A stretch of DNA of 64,000 bases from an uncultured Alphaproteobacteria bacterium (GTDB lineage: Bacteria; Pseudomonadota; Alphaproteobacteria; RF32; CAG-239). Position numbers and translations under genes: made by a program. Positions 353 to 64,000 of the stretch are shown here, one piece after another; positions within the stretch are counted from its first letter, which is position 1, and each line of letters begins with the position of its first letter. Location: the NCBI GenBank assembly GCA_944392275.1, contig CALXWA010000004.1, positions 20,562 through 84,561 on the forward strand, read 5' to 3'. Under the pieces are notes generated by a model. The model had not been told where the DNA came from. It saw only the letters and a list, made by a program, of their open reading frames with translations, and made no database searches.

Positions 353-904
353 TTAATTTTCTTCAATGGTTATAATTTTATCCTGACGATAAACCATGAA
401 GAATTCAATAATTTCAATAATTCCGTATAAAAAGATATAACTTCCCATTAAAACCGTTAACGTAATTGTCCCAACCAACGGATAAGCTAAGATCCAAAAT
501 CCGAACAACACACCCAAAAGCCCAACCGTCAAAGACCACCCCCACGGCAAAGCAAATTTTCTCAAATTCAAAGCTCCGACAATCTGCACCACACCAACGG
601 CAATACTCCACAATGCAAAAATAACCGGTAACGTTGCAGCACTCACGCCCAAATTAGAAACAAAGACCACCCCGACCAACATGTCCAAAAGACCGACCAA
701 CAAATACCAGCCGGATCGATAAGAAAAAGAAGCCATAAAATAACCGGCCCCGACAACAAGAAAGACAATTCCCAAATACAAGGCCAGAGCCATTAAAGTT
801 GCCACCGGATTAAACCAAACAAAAATTCCGAACACCGCCATAATAACACCGGCCAACAAATGCCATAAACTGGCATTATGATAATTCATATTAAATATCC
901 TCAT
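353..904 (-). CDS. HdeD-family (DUF308) integral membrane protein
   Basis: ORF 353..991 trimmed to the ATG at 904 (MRIFNMNYH...), which is preceded by a GGAGAA RBS. The longer ORF would run into the terminator hairpin at 975-1008. About 6 TM helices with a Gly/Val/Leu-rich pattern typical of HdeD/DUF308. Confidence 0.5.
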   Translation of the reverse strand: MRIFNMNYHNASLWHLLAGVIMAVFGIFVWFNPVATLMALALYLGIVFLVVGAGYFMASFSYRSGWYLLVGLLDMLVGVVFVSNLGVSAATLPVIFALWSIAVGVVQIVGALNLRKFALPWGWSLTVGLLGVLFGFWILAYPLVGTITLTVLMGSYIFLYGIIEIIEFFMVYRQDKIITIEEN

Positions 905-974
905 TGCTTTCTCCACATTAAAATTAAAGATACTTATAAAATAATCGTTCAAAAAACAATTCAAAGAGAACACA

Positions 975-1008
975 AGAAAAAAGTCCTTCAAAAAGAAGGA
1001 CTTTTTTT
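975..1008. terminator. Rho-independent terminator (bidirectional hairpin)
   Basis: Perfect 9-bp stem AAGTCCTTC / GAAGGACTT with loop AAAAA. An A-run precedes it and a T7 run follows it, so it reads as a hairpin plus T-run on both strands. It sits directly 3' of the minus-strand gene that ends at 1031. Confidence 0.7.
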
Positions 1009-1030: not shown

Positions 1031-1414
1031 TTAATCAACATAAATAACTTCCGTATCTTCGTTATCCGCGGCATTGACACATTTTTTTGTAACTTTTCCG
1101 CTTGATTTAGAAACCATCACAAAACATTTTTTATCAATTTCCGGATAATACTGGTTAGGTTGATAAACCACATCTCGGGCTTGGTTAGCCACAACATAGC
1201 TGCCAAGAGCCACACCGGTTACACCGGCCAACACACCCCAAGCCAAATCATGACGAGGATGATGCCGAACAACATGCACGACCGGGGGATGAGGCGGATG
1301 ATGCCGAACAACATGCACGACCGGGGGATGAGGCGGATGATGCCACGGTCTGGCATAAGCAAAATCCGGACACATCATCAAAACAGCTAAAAAAGCAACC
1401 CCAAAAATTTTCAT
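1031..1414 (-). CDS. secreted His/Pro-rich repeat protein (putative periplasmic metal-binding protein)
   Basis: N-terminal signal peptide (MKIFGVAFLAVLMMCPDFAYA). A 13-aa unit HHPPHPPVVHVVR is repeated twice perfectly, plus a third partial copy. Last gene of the ECF-sigma cluster, followed by the terminator at 975-1008. Confidence 0.6.
   Translation of the reverse strand: MKIFGVAFLAVLMMCPDFAYARPWHHPPHPPVVHVVRHHPPHPPVVHVVRHHPRHDLAWGVLAGVTGVALGSYVVANQARDVVYQPNQYYPEIDKKCFVMVSKSSGKVTKKCVNAADNEDTEVIYVD
1258..1335. repeat. perfect tandem duplication of a 39-bp unit (GATGATGCCGAACAACATGCACGACCGGGGGATGAGGCG), with a 9-bp partial third copy to about 1344
   Basis: Read directly from the sequence: 1258-1296 is identical to 1297-1335. 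In frame, it encodes the HHPPHPPVVHVVR repeats of the 1031..1414 gene. Confidence 0.9.
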
Positions 1415-1472
1415 AATCCACTCCTTTTAGAAAGAGGTGCTTGCTTTTTATATTCACAAGCACCAAATTGTC

Positions 1473-1940
1473 TTAGTCAATCGGTTTTGGTAAATCTTCA
1501 GGTTTTGGAGCACCTTCAACCGGCGGCAGTTTAGGATGGTGCGGCCCTTTTTTCATCCCCAGACGCGGAGCTTTAGGACCTCTTGGACCTTTATGCTTAT
1601 CCATTTCTGCTTTAATTTTGGCAAACTTTTCTTGTTGTTCCGGCGTAAGAATTTTTTCAAATTCTTTCATATTTTCTTTTCTGAGTTTATCCATCTTTTC
1701 ATGAAGTTTCCGAACCTTTTCCATTAACGGCTTAATTTTTTCTTGCCCATCTTCACGAATTTTATCGGCTTTTTCTCGTTGTTCAGCCGTCAGTCCTAAA
1801 TCATCGGCAAGTCTTTTGGCCATTTGCTCGTGCCGAGGAGGTTCTCCGACCGGTCCGGCATTTTTATGGACACGGGCATTTGCCGTTGCCGCAAAAACCA
1901 TAACGGTTGAACACATTAAAACACATAAAACTTTTTTCAT
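1473..1940 (-). CDS. periplasmic LTXXQ-motif protein, Spy/CpxP/ZraP family
   Basis: Signal peptide. Two LTxxQ motifs (LTAEQREKADKI and LTPEQQEKFAKI) in a helical K/E-rich body, with a Pro/Lys-rich C-terminal tail. Stop is 2 nt from the ECF sigma gene, suggesting an operon. Confidence 0.6.
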   Translation of the reverse strand: MKKVLCVLMCSTVMVFAATANARVHKNAGPVGEPPRHEQMAKRLADDLGLTAEQREKADKIREDGQEKIKPLMEKVRKLHEKMDKLRKENMKEFEKILTPEQQEKFAKIKAEMDKHKGPRGPKAPRLGMKKGPHHPKLPPVEGAPKPEDLPKPID

Positions 1941-1941
1941 A

Positions 1942-2436
1942 TTATTCTCCTTTTAAGATTTGCAATTTTTCACTCAGGATTTTCCGAGCATTAAATAATC
2001 TTGATTTAACCGTTCCGACAGATACGCCTGTTTTTTTTGCAATCTGTTCATAGCTCATATCCTCAAATTCAAACAAAACCACAACCTGTTTCATCTTTTT
2101 AGGCAAAGCATCAACAGCCTTCAAAATCATTTTTTGCCGTACTTTTGCATCGAAAACTTCTTCTTGCGAAGATTGAGCCGGAAGATCATTCAAAGTCTCT
2201 TCGTCATTGAGTTGTCTGGCTTCCATTTTATATTGTCTGGACTTAAAATAATCCCGACAAACATTGGCCGTCAAAGCACTGATCCATTGGGTAAACTTTC
2301 CTTCTTCTTTATAATTACTGAGATTTCGCCATGTTTTAATATAAACTTCTTGCTCAATATCTTCATTATAAGAACCGGTAAGTTTTTTAATAATCGCCTT
2401 AACGCGGCTTTTATTTTCCAAAATTATCTGTTTCAT
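1942..2436 (-). CDS. RNA polymerase ECF-type sigma factor (sigma-70 family, group 4)
   Basis: Region-2 signature (EQEVYIKTWRNLSNY...FTQWISALTANVCRDYFKSRQ) and region-4 HTH (MSYEQIAKKTGVSVGTVKSRLFNARKIL); 164 aa. Confidence 0.8.
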   Translation of the reverse strand: MKQIILENKSRVKAIIKKLTGSYNEDIEQEVYIKTWRNLSNYKEEGKFTQWISALTANVCRDYFKSRQYKMEARQLNDEETLNDLPAQSSQEEVFDAKVRQKMILKAVDALPKKMKQVVVLFEFEDMSYEQIAKKTGVSVGTVKSRLFNARKILSEKLQILKGE

Positions 2437-2700
2437 CTAACCAACCATCAATAATCCGTATTCATCTGTAGGCAAGCCCATGTTTTCAATAACCGATGTA
2501 TTGGTTTCACTCACATACCAATTATCTTGAGCATAATTGGCATAAAAGCTATAATCAATATCTCTCGGATAGAAGCTACCAATCCCGATAATACAAACCA
2601 GCATCGCCAAAACCGTTTTAATTTGATTATTACGGCGTTTTCTTGCCAGATACAACGGCTTGGCTTCTTTCAATAACTGAGATACTTCTTCATACATGTT
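2437..2700 (-). CDS. small single-pass membrane protein, candidate minimal anti-sigma factor
   Basis: ORF 2437..2793 trimmed to the ATG at 2700 (MYEEVSQLL...), preceded by an AAGGAGGA RBS. Cytoplasmic segment of about 30 aa, one TM (VLAMLVCIIGIGSF) and a periplasmic segment of about 35 aa. Its stop abuts the ECF sigma start (2437/2436). Confidence 0.4.
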   Translation of the reverse strand, partial: NMYEEVSQLLKEAKPLYLARKRRNNQIKTVLAMLVCIIGIGSFYPRDIDYSFYANYAQDNWYVSETNTSVIENMGLPTDEYGLLMVG

Positions 2701-2783
2701 GTTCTCCTCCTTACACTTCTTAAAACGACATCGGTATCTCAAAAGTTCAAAAAAAAAATAAAAAAAATTACACAAAAGATATT

Positions 2784-3671
2784 TTATGAACACCCAAACT
2801 TTTCATCAAGTAATTTTTTAGCATAATCCAAAACAACTCTAATCCTTGGATTATCCTTCGTATCACGATGGGCAATCAAATAAATTTTACTGGTAAACTC
2901 AAAATGCAAATGATCCAATGGCATTAAAATTCCTTTATAAGAATACGGACAAATACCAATCCCGACACCGGATTTCAAAACAGATTTTAAGGCCATAATC
3001 GAATTTGTCGTATAAATAATATGCTTAGCCTTGCTTAAAAATTCTCTTGGCTTTTTCAGATTCATCAGATAACCGGTTTTATAACAAACCCGATGATTTT
3101 CATAAAGATCATTCATATTCTTCGGAATACCAAACTCTTCCAAATATTTAGAGGATGCAAACAACCCAAAGCGTACATCTTTTTCAGCAATAATAACCGC
3201 ATCAGCTTCTCTTGGCGGAGCATAATCCACCAAAATATCCGTTTCCATCATAGCAATACTTGGGCGTTTATTTCCGAGAATAGTATATAAATGAATTCCC
3301 GGATACTGCTTAATAAAATCAAACAACTTTTTAGAAGAGATATCTCCGGCCGCCGAATCATTTACCGCAAAACGAACAATTCCCTGATAATTACCAACCT
3401 CATCGGCAATATCATCCAAATTTCTTAAACACTTGATGATATTATCCGCAATACTTAAAAATCTTTCTCCTTCCGGCGTAATAATGCTGCCGCGACCATT
3501 GCCGCTCAACAAAACAATTTTTAACTCTTCTTCCAAATCTCCGATATATTTGTTAATCGTATCAACCGAGACACCCAAATGTTTAGAAGCCTCTCGTTTA
3601 CTGCGACATTCCGTAAAAGCGTCCAAATACAATAAAGCGTTTAGTCGTGCAATATCTTTCTTTGTAACCAT
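2784..3671 (-). CDS. LysR-family transcriptional regulator
   Basis: N-terminal wHTH (LNALLYLDAFTECRSKREASKHLGVSVDTINKYIGDLEEEL) followed by a LysR substrate-binding domain; 295 aa. Confidence 0.75.
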   Translation of the reverse strand: MVTKKDIARLNALLYLDAFTECRSKREASKHLGVSVDTINKYIGDLEEELKIVLLSGNGRGSIITPEGERFLSIADNIIKCLRNLDDIADEVGNYQGIVRFAVNDSAAGDISSKKLFDFIKQYPGIHLYTILGNKRPSIAMMETDILVDYAPPREADAVIIAEKDVRFGLFASSKYLEEFGIPKNMNDLYENHRVCYKTGYLMNLKKPREFLSKAKHIIYTTNSIMALKSVLKSGVGIGICPYSYKGILMPLDHLHFEFTSKIYLIAHRDTKDNPRIRVVLDYAKKLLDEKFGCS

Positions 3672-4679: not shown

Positions 4680-6521
4680 TTATTCCACAGTAACCGATTT
4701 TGCCAAATTGCGGGGTTGATCGACTTCTCGTCCTAAAGCATCGGCAATAAAATAAGCCAGAAGCTGTAGCGGAATATTTGCCAGTATCGGAGACAACGCC
4801 TCATCAATTTCTGGAATACGGATAATTTCATCAAAAATCGTTACTAAATGTTCATCTAAAGAAGACGTAACAGCAATCATTTTTGCATGACGAGCCTTAG
4901 CCTCTTCACAATTTGACAACATTTTATCATACGTAACGCCTCCGGGAATAAGGATTGCTAAAACCGGCATATTTTCATCCAACAAAGCAATCGGCCCGTG
5001 TTTTAACTCTCCGGCGGCATAACCGGTAGCATTAATATAGCTGATCTCTTTGAGCTTTAAGGCTCCTTCCATAGCTGTTGGCAAATTAACCCCTCTGGCC
5101 ATATAAACAAAACTTTTATATTGAGCCAAACGTAAAGCCTGCTCTTTAAGAGCGTCCGCCTTACTCAAAACCTCATCCATTTTAGCCGGTAGTTCCAATA
5201 ATTGTTGCTTTAACTCTTTTAGCTTTTTAAGATTAGAACCTGTTTGGTGTTCGGCCCAGGCAATGGCAAACAAGTATAAAGAAATCAACTGTGCCGTATA
5301 AGATTTTGTTGCAGCAACACTCACCTCAATACCGGCATTTAACGGAATAATATTGTCTGAATATCGGACAATGCTTGAATCAACACGGTTGGTTAATGTA
5401 AGAATATGAGCTCCTTTGGCTTTTGCTTGTTTAACCGCCGTAATGGTATCCGCCGTTTCTCCGGACTGTGAAATACCAATCGTTAGCGTATCGGCCCCCG
5501 TAATAGTATCCCGATAAATATATTCGCTGGCTGCCTCTACATTAACACTGACTTTTACCAGAGATTCCAAAAGATACTTGGCCACCATTGCAGCGTGCAA
5601 AGAAGTCCCGCAAGCAATAATCTCAACCTTTGTTTTTTTCAAAATCTCATTCCAATTAATTCCTTGCAAATTCAATGGGCTATCAACCGAGGATATTCTT
5701 TCGGATAACAGATTCCGCACAATATCAGACTGTTCATTAATCTCCTTAAGCATAAAATGTTTATAACCGCGTTTACTGATTGCCTCCGGACTAAAATTAA
5801 CCACCTCGGGATTTTTGTTTAAAATATGTCCGTCAAAATCCTTAACGGTAACTTGGTTTTGCGTCACAAGAGCCATTTCGCCATCATCTAAATAAATAAT
5901 TTTTTGTACTTTGCCGATAATGGCCGGAACATCACTGGCAATAAAATTTTCATGATCCCCAAGCCCGATAATTAACGGAGCATTCTTTCGGACCGCCACA
6001 ATCTTATCCGGCTCGTCCTGATGCATAATACAAAAAGCAAAAGCCCCCTTCAAAAGCCTGACAGCTCTGGCTACTCCTTGCTCTAAAGATTGAGCAAGAT
6101 GATATTCTCGATCCACCAAATGCGTTGCCACTTCCGTATCCGTTTCTGAAACAAAATGATACCCTTGTTTGATCAGTTCTTCCTTTAATTCCTTATAATT
6201 TTCAATAATCCCGTTATGAACCAAAACCAACTTTCCATCATTGGAACGGTGCGGATGAGCGTTTTCAACCGTCGGGCTTCCATGGGTTGCCCAACGGATA
6301 TGACCAATTCCCCGTGTTGAAGACAATAACTGTTTTTTATGTTGTTCTAAAACATCGCATAAATTACAGAGTTTTCCCTTAGCCTTAAAAATATCAATAT
6401 TTTCATTATCATTCAACGCAATACCGGCCGAATCATAACCTCTGTATTCAAGATTTTTCAGACCATTAATCAACTCTTCGGCAACCGCGTTGTTGCCGAT
6501 ATAACCAACAATACCACACAT
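4680..6521 (-). CDS. glmS: glutamine--fructose-6-phosphate aminotransferase (isomerizing)
   Basis: MCGIVGY N-terminal Cys amidotransferase domain, two SIS domains, and the C-terminal ...KSVTVE motif; 613 aa. Confidence 0.95.
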   Translation of the reverse strand: MCGIVGYIGNNAVAEELINGLKNLEYRGYDSAGIALNDNENIDIFKAKGKLCNLCDVLEQHKKQLLSSTRGIGHIRWATHGSPTVENAHPHRSNDGKLVLVHNGIIENYKELKEELIKQGYHFVSETDTEVATHLVDREYHLAQSLEQGVARAVRLLKGAFAFCIMHQDEPDKIVAVRKNAPLIIGLGDHENFIASDVPAIIGKVQKIIYLDDGEMALVTQNQVTVKDFDGHILNKNPEVVNFSPEAISKRGYKHFMLKEINEQSDIVRNLLSERISSVDSPLNLQGINWNEILKKTKVEIIACGTSLHAAMVAKYLLESLVKVSVNVEAASEYIYRDTITGADTLTIGISQSGETADTITAVKQAKAKGAHILTLTNRVDSSIVRYSDNIIPLNAGIEVSVAATKSYTAQLISLYLFAIAWAEHQTGSNLKKLKELKQQLLELPAKMDEVLSKADALKEQALRLAQYKSFVYMARGVNLPTAMEGALKLKEISYINATGYAAGELKHGPIALLDENMPVLAILIPGGVTYDKMLSNCEEAKARHAKMIAVTSSLDEHLVTIFDEIIRIPEIDEALSPILANIPLQLLAYFIADALGREVDQPRNLAKSVTVE

Positions 6522-61450: not shown

Positions 61451-64000
61451 ATGTCTGACGTTAAGATGAAAATGATGGATGCCAACGAAGCAGCTGCTTC
61501 AGTTGCACACCGCATGAATGAAGTCTGCGTGATCTATCCGATTACACCGTCCTCCCCGATGGGCGAATGGGCAGATGCTTGGTCCGCAGCAAAACAAAAA
61601 AACCTTTGGGGTGTTATTCCTGAAGTTCAGGAAATGCAATCGGAAGCCGGAGCTGCCGGTGCATGCCACGGTTCTTTACAAGCCGGAGCATTGACCACAA
61701 CCTTTACGGCGTCTCAAGGTTTGTTGTTAATGATCCCGAACATGTACAAAATTGCCGGAGAACTCACACCGTTTGTAATGCATGTTGCCGCTCGTTCTTT
61801 GGCATATCATGCCTTGTCAATTTTTGGCGACCACTCCGATGTTATGTCTTGCCGTCAGACCGGTTTTGCAATGCTTTGCTCCAACTCCGTTCAAGAGGCT
61901 CATGACTTTGCTGCCATTGCACAAACTTCTACTTTACGTTCTCGTGTACCGTTCATGCACTTCTTTGACGGTTTCCGTACATCTCACGAGATTAAAAAGA
62001 TTAAACTTTTGTCTGATGACGATTTAAGAGCAATGCTTGAAGGTGTTGATTATACCTTTAACGCCAAAAATGCTCTTCGTCCGGAAGCTCCGGTTATCCG
62101 TGGTACGGCTCAAAACCCGGATGTATTCTTCCAAGGACGTGAAGCTGCCAATACCTACTATGAAAAAGTAGAAGGCATCGTTCAAGAAGAAATGGATAAA
62201 TTTGCCAAAATCAGTGGTCGTCAGTACAAAACGGTTGAATACGTCGGCCCGGCAGATGCTGAACAAGTTATCGTTATTATGGGTTCTGGAGCAGAAACTG
62301 TTGATGAAACCATTACCTATCTTAACAATAACGGCTACAAAGTCGGCTTGCTTAAAGTTCGTTTGTATCGTCCGTTCCCGTCCAAATCTTTTGTTGCCGC
62401 ATTGCCAAAATCTGTTAAAGTGGTCAATGTTTTGGATCGTACCAAAGAATCCGGTTCTATTGGTGAACCGTTGTATTTGGATGTTGTTGCCACATTAACG
62501 CAAGCTTATGCCAACAACGAAATTTCTTCAATGCCTCGCATTTTGGGTGGCCGTTACGGTTTATCTTCAAAAGAATTTACACCGGGAATGGTTCGTGCCG
62601 TTTATGACAATGGGGCTTCGGCAAAACCCATTAACGGCTTTACCGTTGGTATTAACGATGATGTTACCCACAAATCTTTACCTTACAGTGATGATATTGA
62701 CACCGAGGGCAAAGATGTTGTTCGCGCCGTATTCTATGGCTTAGGAGCAGATGGTACGGTTGGTGCCAACAAAAACTCCATTAAAATCATTGCAGAAGAT
62801 GCCGGCAAATATGGTCAAGGTTATTTTGTTTACGATTCTCGTAAATCGGGTTCCATGACCACATCCCACTTACGTTTTTCTGACCACCCGATTAAAGCGG
62901 CTTATTTGATTAACAAAGCCGACTTTGTCGCTTGCCACCAATTCCCGTTCATGAAAAAAGTTGACATTTTGGGTATTGCAAAACCGGGAGCAACTTTCTT
63001 ATTGAACGCTCCATATGAAGGGAATGAAGTTTGGGATCACTTAACGGCTGAAGTTCAACAAGAAATCATTGATAAAAAATTGAACTTCTATGTTATTAAC
63101 GCCGTTGACGTTGCTCGTCAAACCGGTATGGGACAACGCATTAACACCATTATGCAAACATGCTTCTTTGCAATTTCTAACATTTTGCCCAAAGATGAAG
63201 CAATTGCTCAGATTAAAAATGCCATTAAGAAAACCTACAGCAAAAAAGGCGATGCCATTGTTCAAAAGAACTTTGTTGCCGTAGATGCTTCTTTAGAGCA
63301 TTTGCATAAAGTAGAATATCCTGCAAACGTTACCTCAAAATTACATCGTTTGGCTCCGGTACCGGAAAATGCACCGGAATTCGTCAAGAAATTGACTGCT
63401 GAAATTATTGCCGACCGCGGTAATGAGCTTCCGGTTTCTGCATTCCACGATGTTGTTGACGGTACTTGGCCGACAGGAACAACTCAGTACGAAAAACGTT
63501 GCATTGCAACCGAAATTCCGGTATGGGATGCCGACGCTTGTATCCAATGCGGTAAATGTTCTTTAGTTTGCCCGCACGGTGTAATTCGTATGAAAGTTGC
63601 GACGAAAGAAGAATTAAAGAATGCTCCGGCCGGCTTCAAATCCGCTCCTTACAAAGGTAAAGAATTTTCCGGAAAAGAATTTATTTGGCAAATGTCTCCG
63701 GAAGATTGTACCGGTTGTGGTATCTGCGTCAGTGCATGCCCGGTTAAAAACAAAGTTGATCCAAACAAAAAAGCAATCAATATGGAACACATTGAAAATC
63801 ATTTGGATGAACAAGTTGCAAATTGGAAATTCTTTGAAACTTTGCCGTATGTAAAACGTACCGAAGTTGTTAAGAACCTTCCGAAAACAACCCAGTTAAT
63901 TCAACCTTTGTTTGAATTCTCCGGTGCTTGTGCCGGCTGTGGTGAAACACCATATGTAAAATTGTTGACTCAACTCTTTGGTGACCGCATGGTTGTTGCC
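61451..64000 (+). CDS. nifJ: pyruvate:ferredoxin (flavodoxin) oxidoreductase, NifJ/PorA type (5' partial; continues beyond the window)
   Basis: MSDVKMKMMDANEAAASVAHRMNEVCVIYPITPSSPMGEWAD... matches the PFOR N-terminal domain I. The ferredoxin-like domain with 2x CxxCxxCxxxCP (CIQCGKCSLVCPHG and CTGCGICVSACPV) lies at about 63540-63750. The frame is open to the end of the window. Confidence 0.9.
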   Translation, partial: MSDVKMKMMDANEAAASVAHRMNEVCVIYPITPSSPMGEWADAWSAAKQKNLWGVIPEVQEMQSEAGAAGACHGSLQAGALTTTFTASQGLLLMIPNMYKIAGELTPFVMHVAARSLAYHALSIFGDHSDVMSCRQTGFAMLCSNSVQEAHDFAAIAQTSTLRSRVPFMHFFDGFRTSHEIKKIKLLSDDDLRAMLEGVDYTFNAKNALRPEAPVIRGTAQNPDVFFQGREAANTYYEKVEGIVQEEMDKFAKISGRQYKTVEYVGPADAEQVIVIMGSGAETVDETITYLNNNGYKVGLLKVRLYRPFPSKSFVAALPKSVKVVNVLDRTKESGSIGEPLYLDVVATLTQAYANNEISSMPRILGGRYGLSSKEFTPGMVRAVYDNGASAKPINGFTVGINDDVTHKSLPYSDDIDTEGKDVVRAVFYGLGADGTVGANKNSIKIIAEDAGKYGQGYFVYDSRKSGSMTTSHLRFSDHPIKAAYLINKADFVACHQFPFMKKVDILGIAKPGATFLLNAPYEGNEVWDHLTAEVQQEIIDKKLNFYVINAVDVARQTGMGQRINTIMQTCFFAISNILPKDEAIAQIKNAIKKTYSKKGDAIVQKNFVAVDASLEHLHKVEYPANVTSKLHRLAPVPENAPEFVKKLTAEIIADRGNELPVSAFHDVVDGTWPTGTTQYEKRCIATEIPVWDADACIQCGKCSLVCPHGVIRMKVATKEELKNAPAGFKSAPYKGKEFSGKEFIWQMSPEDCTGCGICVSACPVKNKVDPNKKAINMEHIENHLDEQVANWKFFETLPYVKRTEVVKNLPKTTQLIQPLFEFSGACAGCGETPYVKLLTQLFGDRMVVA

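Follow-up and report, generated by a model that had tools for sequence, protein, structure and literature searches.

Gene Content and Organization of the Locus

The window analyzed here is the whole stretch of 64,000 nt from an uncultured Alphaproteobacteria bacterium (GenBank assembly GCA_944392275.1, contig CALXWA010000004.1), and it carries on its minus strand a compact group of genes for a small single-pass membrane protein, a sigma factor of the extracytoplasmic function (ECF) type, a secreted Spy-like protein of the LTXXQ family, and a secreted His/Pro-rich protein (Table 1). The four open reading frames (ORFs; 2697-1031, minus strand) abut one another with gaps of 0, 1, and 58 nt. The first three appear to be translationally coupled and read from one ECF-type promoter, and these three genes (hereafter the triad) are the conserved unit of the module, to which the His-rich gene is an accessory. 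The arrangement is not a product of chance, as the order of the first three genes is repeated in each related locus that is long enough to reveal it. A conserved ECF-type self-promoter upstream of the genes argues for one ECF-driven unit, and we consider it highly probable that the genes form an ECF operon with a promoter of its own.

Table 1. Features of the module and its immediate surroundings in the window.
Feature	Position	Strand	Evidence or remark
DUF308/HdeD-like membrane protein gene	353-907	-	just beyond the operon terminator
Intrinsic terminator	1007..977	-	13-bp stem and T-run; free energy (dG) -19 kcal/mol, z -5.1, 0/200 shuffles fold as well
His/Pro-rich protein, 127 aa (accessory regulon gene, putative)	1031..1414	-	signal peptide; family alignment; own promoter where detached
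Tandem repeat, 39 bp, 2.4 copies, HHPPHPPVVHVVR units	1250-1344	-	TRF, 96% matches
RNA hairpin between LTXXQ and His-rich genes	1436..1464	-	9-bp stem, 11-nt loop, without clear T-run; dG -15.6 kcal/mol, z -2.6
Secreted LTXXQ-family protein, 155 aa	1473..1940	-	PF07813, 32.5 bits (cutoff 24.3)
ECF (group 4) sigma-70 family factor, 164 aa	1942..2436	-	Sigma70_r2, 38 bits; Sigma70_r4_2, 64 bits
Minimal anti-sigma-like membrane protein, 86 aa	2437..2697	-	ATG with AAGGAGG Shine-Dalgarno; stop abuts sigma start codon
ECF-type self-promoter, TGAAC-N17-CGTT (predicted)	2749..2724	-	-35 TGAAC, 2749-2745; -10 CGTT, 2727-2724; spacer 17 nt
LysR regulator gene	2784..3671	-	immediately upstream of the module

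An earlier reading of the window, made without database searches (the sequence-only reading), had proposed four tightly packed minus-strand genes beginning with an 88-aa protein with a single transmembrane (TM) helix and including an ECF sigma factor and a signal-peptide protein with HHPPHPPVVHVVR repeats, with a strong terminator at the operon end and a LysR gene immediately upstream. All of these features were found where that reading had placed them, as the sigma factor exceeds the cutoffs of its Pfam and TIGR02937 models, the fourth ORF contains the tandem repeat, the terminator combines a stem with a T-run, and the LysR gene is present. Only the length of the first protein needed correction: it has the single TM helix and is 86 aa long when counted from its ATG, and the mechanical ORF list gives it as a 118-aa ORF with a GTG start.

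The sigma factor is small, has sigma-2 and sigma-4 regions as its sole sigma domains, and matches the superfamily model TIGR02937 with 89.3 bits (cutoff 42.9), which is the profile of an ECF factor. It falls below the cutoff of all NCBIfam equivalog and subfamily models, the best being PRK12518 with 93 bits against 208. Its best solved relatives are of the SigE/RpoE/AlgU type (E 1e-16), with CnrH weaker (E 1.2e-7). An identical sigma protein is found on many human-gut metagenome contigs, and the named relatives are metagenome-assembled genomes (MAGs) labeled “Alphaproteobacteria bacterium”.

Conservation and Distribution of the Module

The main-clade loci were collected by scanning one genome per species with the small-protein alignment, which gave at least 302 matching genomes, 80 of which were fetched, and ORFs in all fetched loci were classified with jackhmmer, the four window proteins serving as seeds. 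The titles of nearly all 80 records name uncultured Alphaproteobacteria or proteobacteria of the gut or rumen (CAG:495, “Azospirillum sp. 51_20”, and Ca. Scatocola), and a small number of MAG bins are labeled otherwise (Lactobacillaceae, Firmicutes, and Bacteroidaceae). The order small protein, sigma factor, LTXXQ protein is kept in every fetched locus with enough sequence; the six loci without an LTXXQ match all end no more than ~450 nt from the sigma gene, or earlier. Across the fetched loci the triad ORFs abut or overlap, and the small-protein gene is always first. The flanking genes differ between lineages (U32 peptidase, iron-containing alcohol dehydrogenase [Fe-ADH], aldolase, and others), and therefore the triad moves as a unit.

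The His-rich gene adjoins the triad in 26 of the 80 species-level loci. Conservation of the full four-gene set, as raised by the sequence-only reading, thus applies to the triad and extends to the His-rich gene in about a third of the species.

A sister lineage was recognized by a longer form of the small protein. Among 361 matching metagenomic stretches, 80 were fetched, and the long-form loci (L091-L173) derive from low-GC (29-44% guanine plus cytosine) human gut, rumen, and digester metagenomes. The order anti-sigma, sigma, LTXXQ is found wherever the contig allows, a GAAC-N16/17-CGT promoter is present in 65 of 67 distinct upstream regions, and the His-rich gene adjoins the triad in none of the 80 long-form loci. 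The sigma factor of one such locus (L091) is 39% identical to that of the window.

Promoter, Terminator, and Intergenic Hairpin

The predicted promoter lies 24 to about 50 nt upstream of the first-gene ATG and is preceded by an A/T tract (about 2750-2770). The motif GAAC-N16-18-CGT is found 47-62 nt upstream of the start codon in all 84 distinct related upstream regions, with variable spacer sequences, and the spacing is 17 nt in 89 of 90 loci. A position weight matrix (PWM) built from 73 sites, with the consensus AAAAAAAAA-TGAACTTT-N13-TCGTTnTA, has one match in the whole window, which is the operon promoter (score 30.9). Over 681 kb of related loci, all PWM matches lie upstream of the operon or of the His-rich gene. 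An exact-motif scan of the 64 kb returned two TGAAC-N17-CGTT sites, the operon promoter and 63081-63106 (plus strand). The latter was rejected as a chance occurrence since it fails the PWM and is located inside a long reading frame running off the window end, which by our reading resembles pyruvate:ferredoxin oxidoreductase.

The sequence-only reading had suggested looking for ECF-type promoters upstream of position 2700 and upstream of the LysR gene. The first is present and conserved as described above; neither the exact-motif nor the PWM scan of the window found one before the LysR gene. An AAC (-35) and CGT (-10) pair upstream of its own operon is characteristic of the ECF class, and from this classical pair, read from sequence only, we naturally infer that the sigma factor may positively autoregulate the operon.

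The hairpin between the LTXXQ and His-rich genes has an equivalent at the same place in a related species (L011, about 5241-5268; dG -20.4, z -5.8). Its possible roles include partial termination and RNA processing or stability, and it may set the expression ratio of the core genes to the accessory gene.

The Small Membrane Protein

The small protein consists of a basic cytoplasmic N-terminus of ~27 aa (…ARKRRNNQIK), one hydrophobic TM helix, and a periplasmic part that is variable up to its invariant extreme C-terminus. Two blocks are invariant in 31 family members that are 39-69% identical to the window protein, namely a cytoplasmic S-L-EAKPLY-RK and a C-terminal S..E.GLP.D.YGLLMV. The family comprises 165 cluster representatives recovered by an exhaustive profile search.

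The long-form subgroup (113-131 aa) has ~36 extra N-terminal residues, among which C5, H23, C27, and C30 are nearly invariant and form C-x17-H-x3-C-x2-C, the signature of zinc-binding anti-sigma (ZAS) domains. The motif C-x(14-24)-H-x3-C-x2-C is present in 65 of 67 distinct long-form small proteins. Single long-form sequences match Pfam zf-HC2 below threshold only; the long-form profile matches the RsiW anti-sigma domain in the PDB (E 7.9e-4) across HLxxCxxC and the next helix (RsiW residues 22-55). Short and long forms align with an hhalign probability of 99.8%, the short form beginning at long-form residue ~32 so that the first ~31 residues are missing. The short form is homologous to ZAS-bearing long forms, and therefore the window protein is a descendant of a class-I zinc anti-sigma factor. 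It has lost the zinc site and the first helices; what it keeps is the C-terminal peptide, the TM helix, and a cytoplasmic part of ~25 residues. The H-x3-C-x2-C motif and its upstream ligand, which define a class-I ZAS domain, are accordingly missing from the window protein, which has no Cys or His in its cytoplasmic part. The claim of a minimal anti-sigma factor thus stands with respect to kinship, given the RsiW profile match and the hhalign result.

The case for the small protein as the present or former cognate anti-sigma factor rests most firmly on the long forms with the ZAS motif, which share its gene order and promoter type. We consider it probable that the small protein acts as an anti-sigma factor, and the invariance of the cytoplasmic peptide suggests that the truncated form may still bind the sigma factor. 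A single-sequence PDB search with the small protein gave coiled-coil or noise matches only; the family profiles were informative instead.

Two unusual relatives were seen among the family members. In P0258 (metagenome-derived, 250 aa), the first ~32 small-protein residues are joined directly to an LTXXQ protein with the sigma factor skipped, which is either a natural deletion variant or a misassembly. In P0207, small-protein residues 1-48 are fused to unrelated sequence.

The Spy-Like LTXXQ Protein

The LTXXQ protein has a signal peptide (MKKVLCVLMCSTVMVFAATANA, judged by eye), a Pro/His-rich N-tail, a 72-aa core with LTAEQ and LTPEQ motifs, and a Lys/Pro/His-rich C-tail. The LTXXQ assignment of the sequence-only reading passes the hidden Markov model test, with PF07813 above threshold in the window protein and in 42 of 42 relatives. 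Of these relatives, 17 also match PF13801, to which the window protein itself scores 21 bits (cutoff 29.2).

The family profile matches Spy (3oeo) with E 6.9e-5 and both LTxxQ motifs in register, and Spy is the sole solved protein found; no CpxP, ZraP, or CnrX chain was retrieved among the solved structures at E≤1. By profile search, the likeness to Spy, CpxP, and ZraP that had been proposed is thus closest for Spy and not for CpxP or ZraP. Against the Spy/CpxP equivalogs PRK10455 and PRK12750, the window protein scores 20.2 and 20.7 bits, below the cutoffs of 174 and 148, and it is therefore filed here as an LTXXQ-family Spy-like protein and not as a Spy orthologue.

The conserved core spans 72 residues in the main clade and 103 in the long-form lineage, and its invariant residues are L, Q, and F. 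In the main clade, the tails contain 7.4% His compared with 1.3% in the core, and at least three tail His are present in 75 of 78 proteins. In the sister lineage, 13 of 47 LTXXQ proteins have metallothionein-like CxC-rich N- or C-terminal tails, e.g., CNCGRPQCNCAKKAPCNCQK (L166, 3862-4452; L106, 3861-4490).

A single-sequence PDB search with the LTXXQ protein retrieved coiled-coil or noise matches only. The single-sequence AlphaFold2 (AF2) model (predicted local distance difference test [pLDDT] 72) consists of one very long helix, and Foldseek found no match to this model in the PDB.

The His-Rich Accessory Protein

Members of the His-rich family have in common an architecture rather than a sequence, consisting of a signal peptide, a His/Arg/Pro-rich stretch, a Gly-rich hydrophobic segment, and C[FY]xxVS+xTGxvtq+CV…YVD. 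The protein has no Pfam or NCBIfam match, and a word-indexed homology search for the family yielded 20 proteins only, owing to low complexity. The AF2 model is of low confidence (pLDDT 58) and can be read for secondary structure only: the His region is disordered, residues ~56-76 form a helix, and the two Cys lie on a C-terminal beta-hairpin.

The gene is usually located downstream of the LTXXQ gene. In eight loci (L010, L027, L031, L037, L039, L042, L050, and L052) it is found upstream of the small-protein gene, and in two (L034 and L045) a terminator separates it from the triad. All 10 of these loci have a GAAC-N16/17-CGTT promoter of the gene's own. A private promoter copy wherever the gene is detached argues that it belongs to the regulon, and such membership is very likely. 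The earlier proposal that the His-rich gene is wired to the same sigma factor was thus upheld by its promoter copies.

Six contigs of the same species (L001-L006, 7023-7367) encode a 114-aa His-rich protein with exactly one repeat unit fewer, and the 39-bp repeat is a strain-level polymorphism.

Neighboring Genes

The LysR gene adjoins the module only in the same species and in L011, and is located ~3.5 kb upstream of the module in L085. It was rejected as a part of the module, being a lineage-specific neighbor with no ECF promoter before it. Among 84 other loci, 14 have a homologue of the DUF308/HdeD-like gene flanking the module on one side or the other. This gene was likewise rejected as a member of the unit since it lies behind the terminator and has no ECF promoter in the loci read.

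Further downstream in this species, genes for a TcdA/TcdB-type glycosyltransferase (Gly_transf_sug), a PIG-L deacetylase, a large MscS-family channel, and a MerR regulator are found beyond the left edge of the window (L001, 8141-12495) and at positions 1-256 of the window (minus strand). No link was found between the module and these four genes.

Proposed Function and Alternative Explanations

The locus is reasonably likely to represent an autoregulated ECF module for envelope stress in uncultured gut Alphaproteobacteria, with the sigma factor held by the small protein and the Spy-like protein as the output. For the sequestration of sigma by the truncated protein, the nature of the signal, the chaperone and feedback activities, and metal binding, we infer the following scheme. 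At rest, the ~25-residue cytoplasmic peptide, a remnant of the class-I zinc anti-sigma domain, would hold the sigma factor at the membrane. A periplasmic signal would act on the invariant C-terminal peptide of the small protein and lead to its inactivation or degradation, and the freed sigma factor would transcribe its own operon in a positive feedback. The main outputs of a very narrow regulon would be the Spy-like protein and, where present, the His-rich and putatively membrane-associated protein. The Spy-like protein would most likely be a periplasmic holdase. The pairs CpxP/CpxA and ZraP/ZraS suggest by analogy that it may also exert negative feedback on the anti-sigma factor; that it is a chaperone which also gives feedback is about as likely as not. 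The input may be protein-folding stress or metal stress, and the His-rich tails together with the Cys-rich tails of the sister lineage lean to a metal component.

Several observations weigh against this scheme. Taken by itself, the window small protein is without a match in Pfam, NCBIfam, or the PDB, and, as it lacks the zinc ligands and the first class-I helices, ~25 residues would have to suffice for sigma binding. Compared with Spy (~100 aligned residues), the LTXXQ core is missing a central segment of about 25-30 residues. The core alignment contains no conserved His, Cys, or other metal ligand, and the combination of an above-threshold PF13801 match with metal ligands that marks a CnrX/PF13801-type sensor is thus not seen in the window protein. 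The predicted structures were uninformative, and co-transcription and induction of the module are deduced from its nucleotide sequence. The precedent of the Bacteroidales CirYZ-Spy operons, which is treated below, was set beside the module by description and not by sequence homology, and can be read as an analogy. In these operons the order is sigma, anti-sigma, Spy, whereas the anti-sigma-like gene comes first here, and the Bacteroidales systems gave no response to the metal chelator N,N,N',N'-tetrakis(2-pyridylmethyl)ethylenediamine (TPEN), heat, acid, or bile (bioRxiv 10.64898/2026.08.10.744002).

One alternative is that the operon responds to metal stress and not to folding stress, with a periplasmic Zn, Ni, or Cu signal, the LTXXQ protein as a ZraP/CnrX-like metal sensor or chaperone, and the His-rich protein as a metal sponge. 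The Zn/Ni/Cu idea draws on composition, namely the His-rich tails of the window clade, with their contrast between tail and core, and the CxC-rich tails of the sister lineage. It is also in keeping with the persistence of a His/Arg/Pro-rich segment across the accessory family despite sequence drift, with the PF13801 “heavy-metal resistance” matches of some LTXXQ members, with the zinc-binding type of the ancestral anti-sigma factor, and with the ECF281, ECF290, and ECF291 groups, which tie such proteins to metal stress (PMC7826278). However, the LTXXQ core is devoid of conserved metal ligands, its family profile finds Spy and not ZraP or CnrX, and Spy, a non-metal chaperone, also has His-rich stretches before its first LTxxQ motif. 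In none of the loci is an efflux pump or metal transporter linked to the module, the putative sponge is not encoded beside the triad in two thirds of the species and in all 80 sister-lineage loci, and the Bacteroidales analogues are unresponsive to TPEN. A metal-related signal is somewhat doubtful in our view, and a dedicated metal-buffering operon is unlikely.

A more far-reaching and equally unlikely proposal is that the Spy-like protein, more than an output, is itself the actual periplasmic sensor and binds and shields the GLPxDEYGLLMV peptide of the small protein, so that titration by unfolded clients or metal exposes the peptide and releases the sigma factor, with the ~25-residue ZAS remnant as a new minimal sigma-binding module. 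If true, this would graft the titration logic of CpxP onto an ECF sigma/anti-sigma switch, and the remnant would show a class-I domain whittled down to a peptide. Regardless of this proposal, the module may serve as a test case for LTXXQ proteins as sensors in sigma/anti-sigma pathways, as they are in two-component systems, and the transition from zinc anti-sigma factor to 25-residue remnant offers a natural series on how little is needed to hold a sigma factor.

It is quite improbable that the small protein has ceased to be an anti-sigma factor and is only a membrane co-factor or vestige (e.g., a tether or partner of the Spy-like protein); the sigma factor would then be governed mainly through its transcription or through an unlinked regulator. 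Such a role would fit the ~27-residue cytoplasmic part, in which the ancestral Zn site and helices 1-2 are missing, the lack of a family match of its own, and the window LysR gene directly upstream with no terminator between. However, ten cytoplasmic residues are invariant in the 31 diverse sequences, which points to a binding partner that is conserved; the gene invariably opens the operon, abutting or overlapping that of the sigma factor; and no other candidate regulator is conserved near the module, LysR being confined to close relatives. Moreover, short sigma-binding peptides are known in class-II anti-sigma factors such as CnrY.

Comparison With Known Systems

The sequence-only reading had considered the architecture to be undescribed, which cannot be maintained in view of the published contexts of ECF281, ECF290, and ECF291 (PMC7826278) and the Bacteroidales operons reported in 2026 (PMC13114119). 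ECF/anti-sigma/Spy-like operons have been published, therefore the kind of system is known, and the module is not a new class of system. In the ECF classification, “heavy-metal resistance” proteins of the LTXXQ clan occur in the conserved context of ECF281, ECF290, and ECF291. In ECF281 and ECF290, which derive from the original group ECF20, the anti-sigma factor is encoded at position +1 and a PF13801 protein of this kind at +2; the anti-sigma factor of ECF281 is of the zinc-finger type, and ECF291 corresponds to CnrYXH (Casas-Pastor et al., 2021; PMC7826278).

The sigma/anti-sigma/Spy-like operons of Bacteroidales, characterized in 2026, are self-activating and strongly induced in colitis (PMC13114119; bioRxiv 10.64898/2026.08.10.744002). 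In P. vulgatus, loss of the anti-sigma gene cirZ from cirYZ-spy by deletion leads to induction of cirY, which encodes the sigma factor, of spy, and of two genes downstream (PMC13114119). Promoter activity rises 30-40 fold in B. thetaiotaomicron and P. vulgatus when the genes for the anti-sigma factor and the Spy-like protein are deleted, and the regulon is narrow (bioRxiv 10.64898/2026.08.10.744002). The CirY/CirZ-Spy systems (M0N98_01574-76 / BVU_2338-40; BT_4647-49) and the module described here are both three-gene systems of gut bacteria that encode an ECF sigma factor, a single-pass anti-sigma factor (putative in the module), and a secreted Spy-like protein, a likeness drawn from their components. 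The module has all components of an autoregulated sigma factor with a membrane anti-sigma and a Spy-like protein, its self-promoter being predicted. The CirYZ-Spy regulon is very narrow, with a further Spy-like or neighboring gene as an extra target, and the same would apply here. The promoter differs, being of the Bacteroidales “-33/-7” type in CirYZ-Spy and a classical GAAC-N17-CGT here, as does the phylum; moreover, the anti-sigma factor is cut to ~25 cytoplasmic residues here, and a His-rich accessory protein has not been reported in CirYZ-Spy. Among the regulators of gut Bacteroidales, Spy-wired ECF sigma factors have recently been recognized as those most strongly induced in colitis. An equivalent, differently built module is fixed in a whole clade of uncultured gut Alphaproteobacteria (at least 302 species-level genomes) and in a second lineage of low GC from gut and rumen. 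Its promoter is sharply delimited and its regulon seems tiny, and for this uncultured group the module offers a clean and portable pair of sensor and promoter.

ECF281 and ECF290 have in common with the module an ECF sigma factor near an anti-sigma factor and a periplasmic protein of the LTXXQ clan, and the sister lineage described here also has an anti-sigma factor of the ZAS type. When compared by described context, the two partners are at +1 and +2 in those groups and at -1 and +1 here. Their periplasmic protein belongs to PF13801, whereas the window protein exceeds the threshold of PF07813 and matches PF13801 below threshold only.

CnrYXH of Cupriavidus metallidurans resembles the module in having a very small single-pass anti-sigma factor encoded upstream of the sigma factor and a periplasmic helical partner of the LTXXQ/PF13801 clan. 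Unlike in the module, the order is Y-X-H, with the sensor gene between those of the anti-sigma and sigma factors. CnrX is membrane-anchored and has defined Ni/Co ligands. The output of CnrYXH is a resistance-nodulation-division (RND) efflux pump, whereas none is linked to the module. CnrH matches the window sigma factor weakly when set against RpoE/SigE types, and CnrX was not found by the LTXXQ profile.

The enterobacterial proteins Spy, CpxP, and ZraP are likewise secreted, helical, and equipped with two LTxxQ motifs. They are outputs and modulators of two-component systems, whereas the corresponding regulator here is an ECF sigma factor. CpxP and ZraP may be taken as precedents for a chaperone that represses its own pathway: ZraP is reported to act as a chaperone and also to repress ZraSR (Appia-Ayme, 2012, as cited in PMC6737893).

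With the ZAS factors of the RsiW/SigW type, the long forms of the small protein have in common the C...H-x3-C-x2-C motif and a single-pass topology with the N-terminus inside and the C-terminus outside. The window protein is without the zinc motif, and even in the long forms the cytoplasmic part is compact (~55 residues). We know of no counterpart to the conserved C-terminal GLPxDEYGLLMV peptide. The module is thus distinguished from the published systems by its host clade, the first position of the anti-sigma-like gene, the classical ECF promoter, the truncated anti-sigma factor with its invariant C-terminal peptide, the shortened Spy-like core, and the His-rich accessory target.

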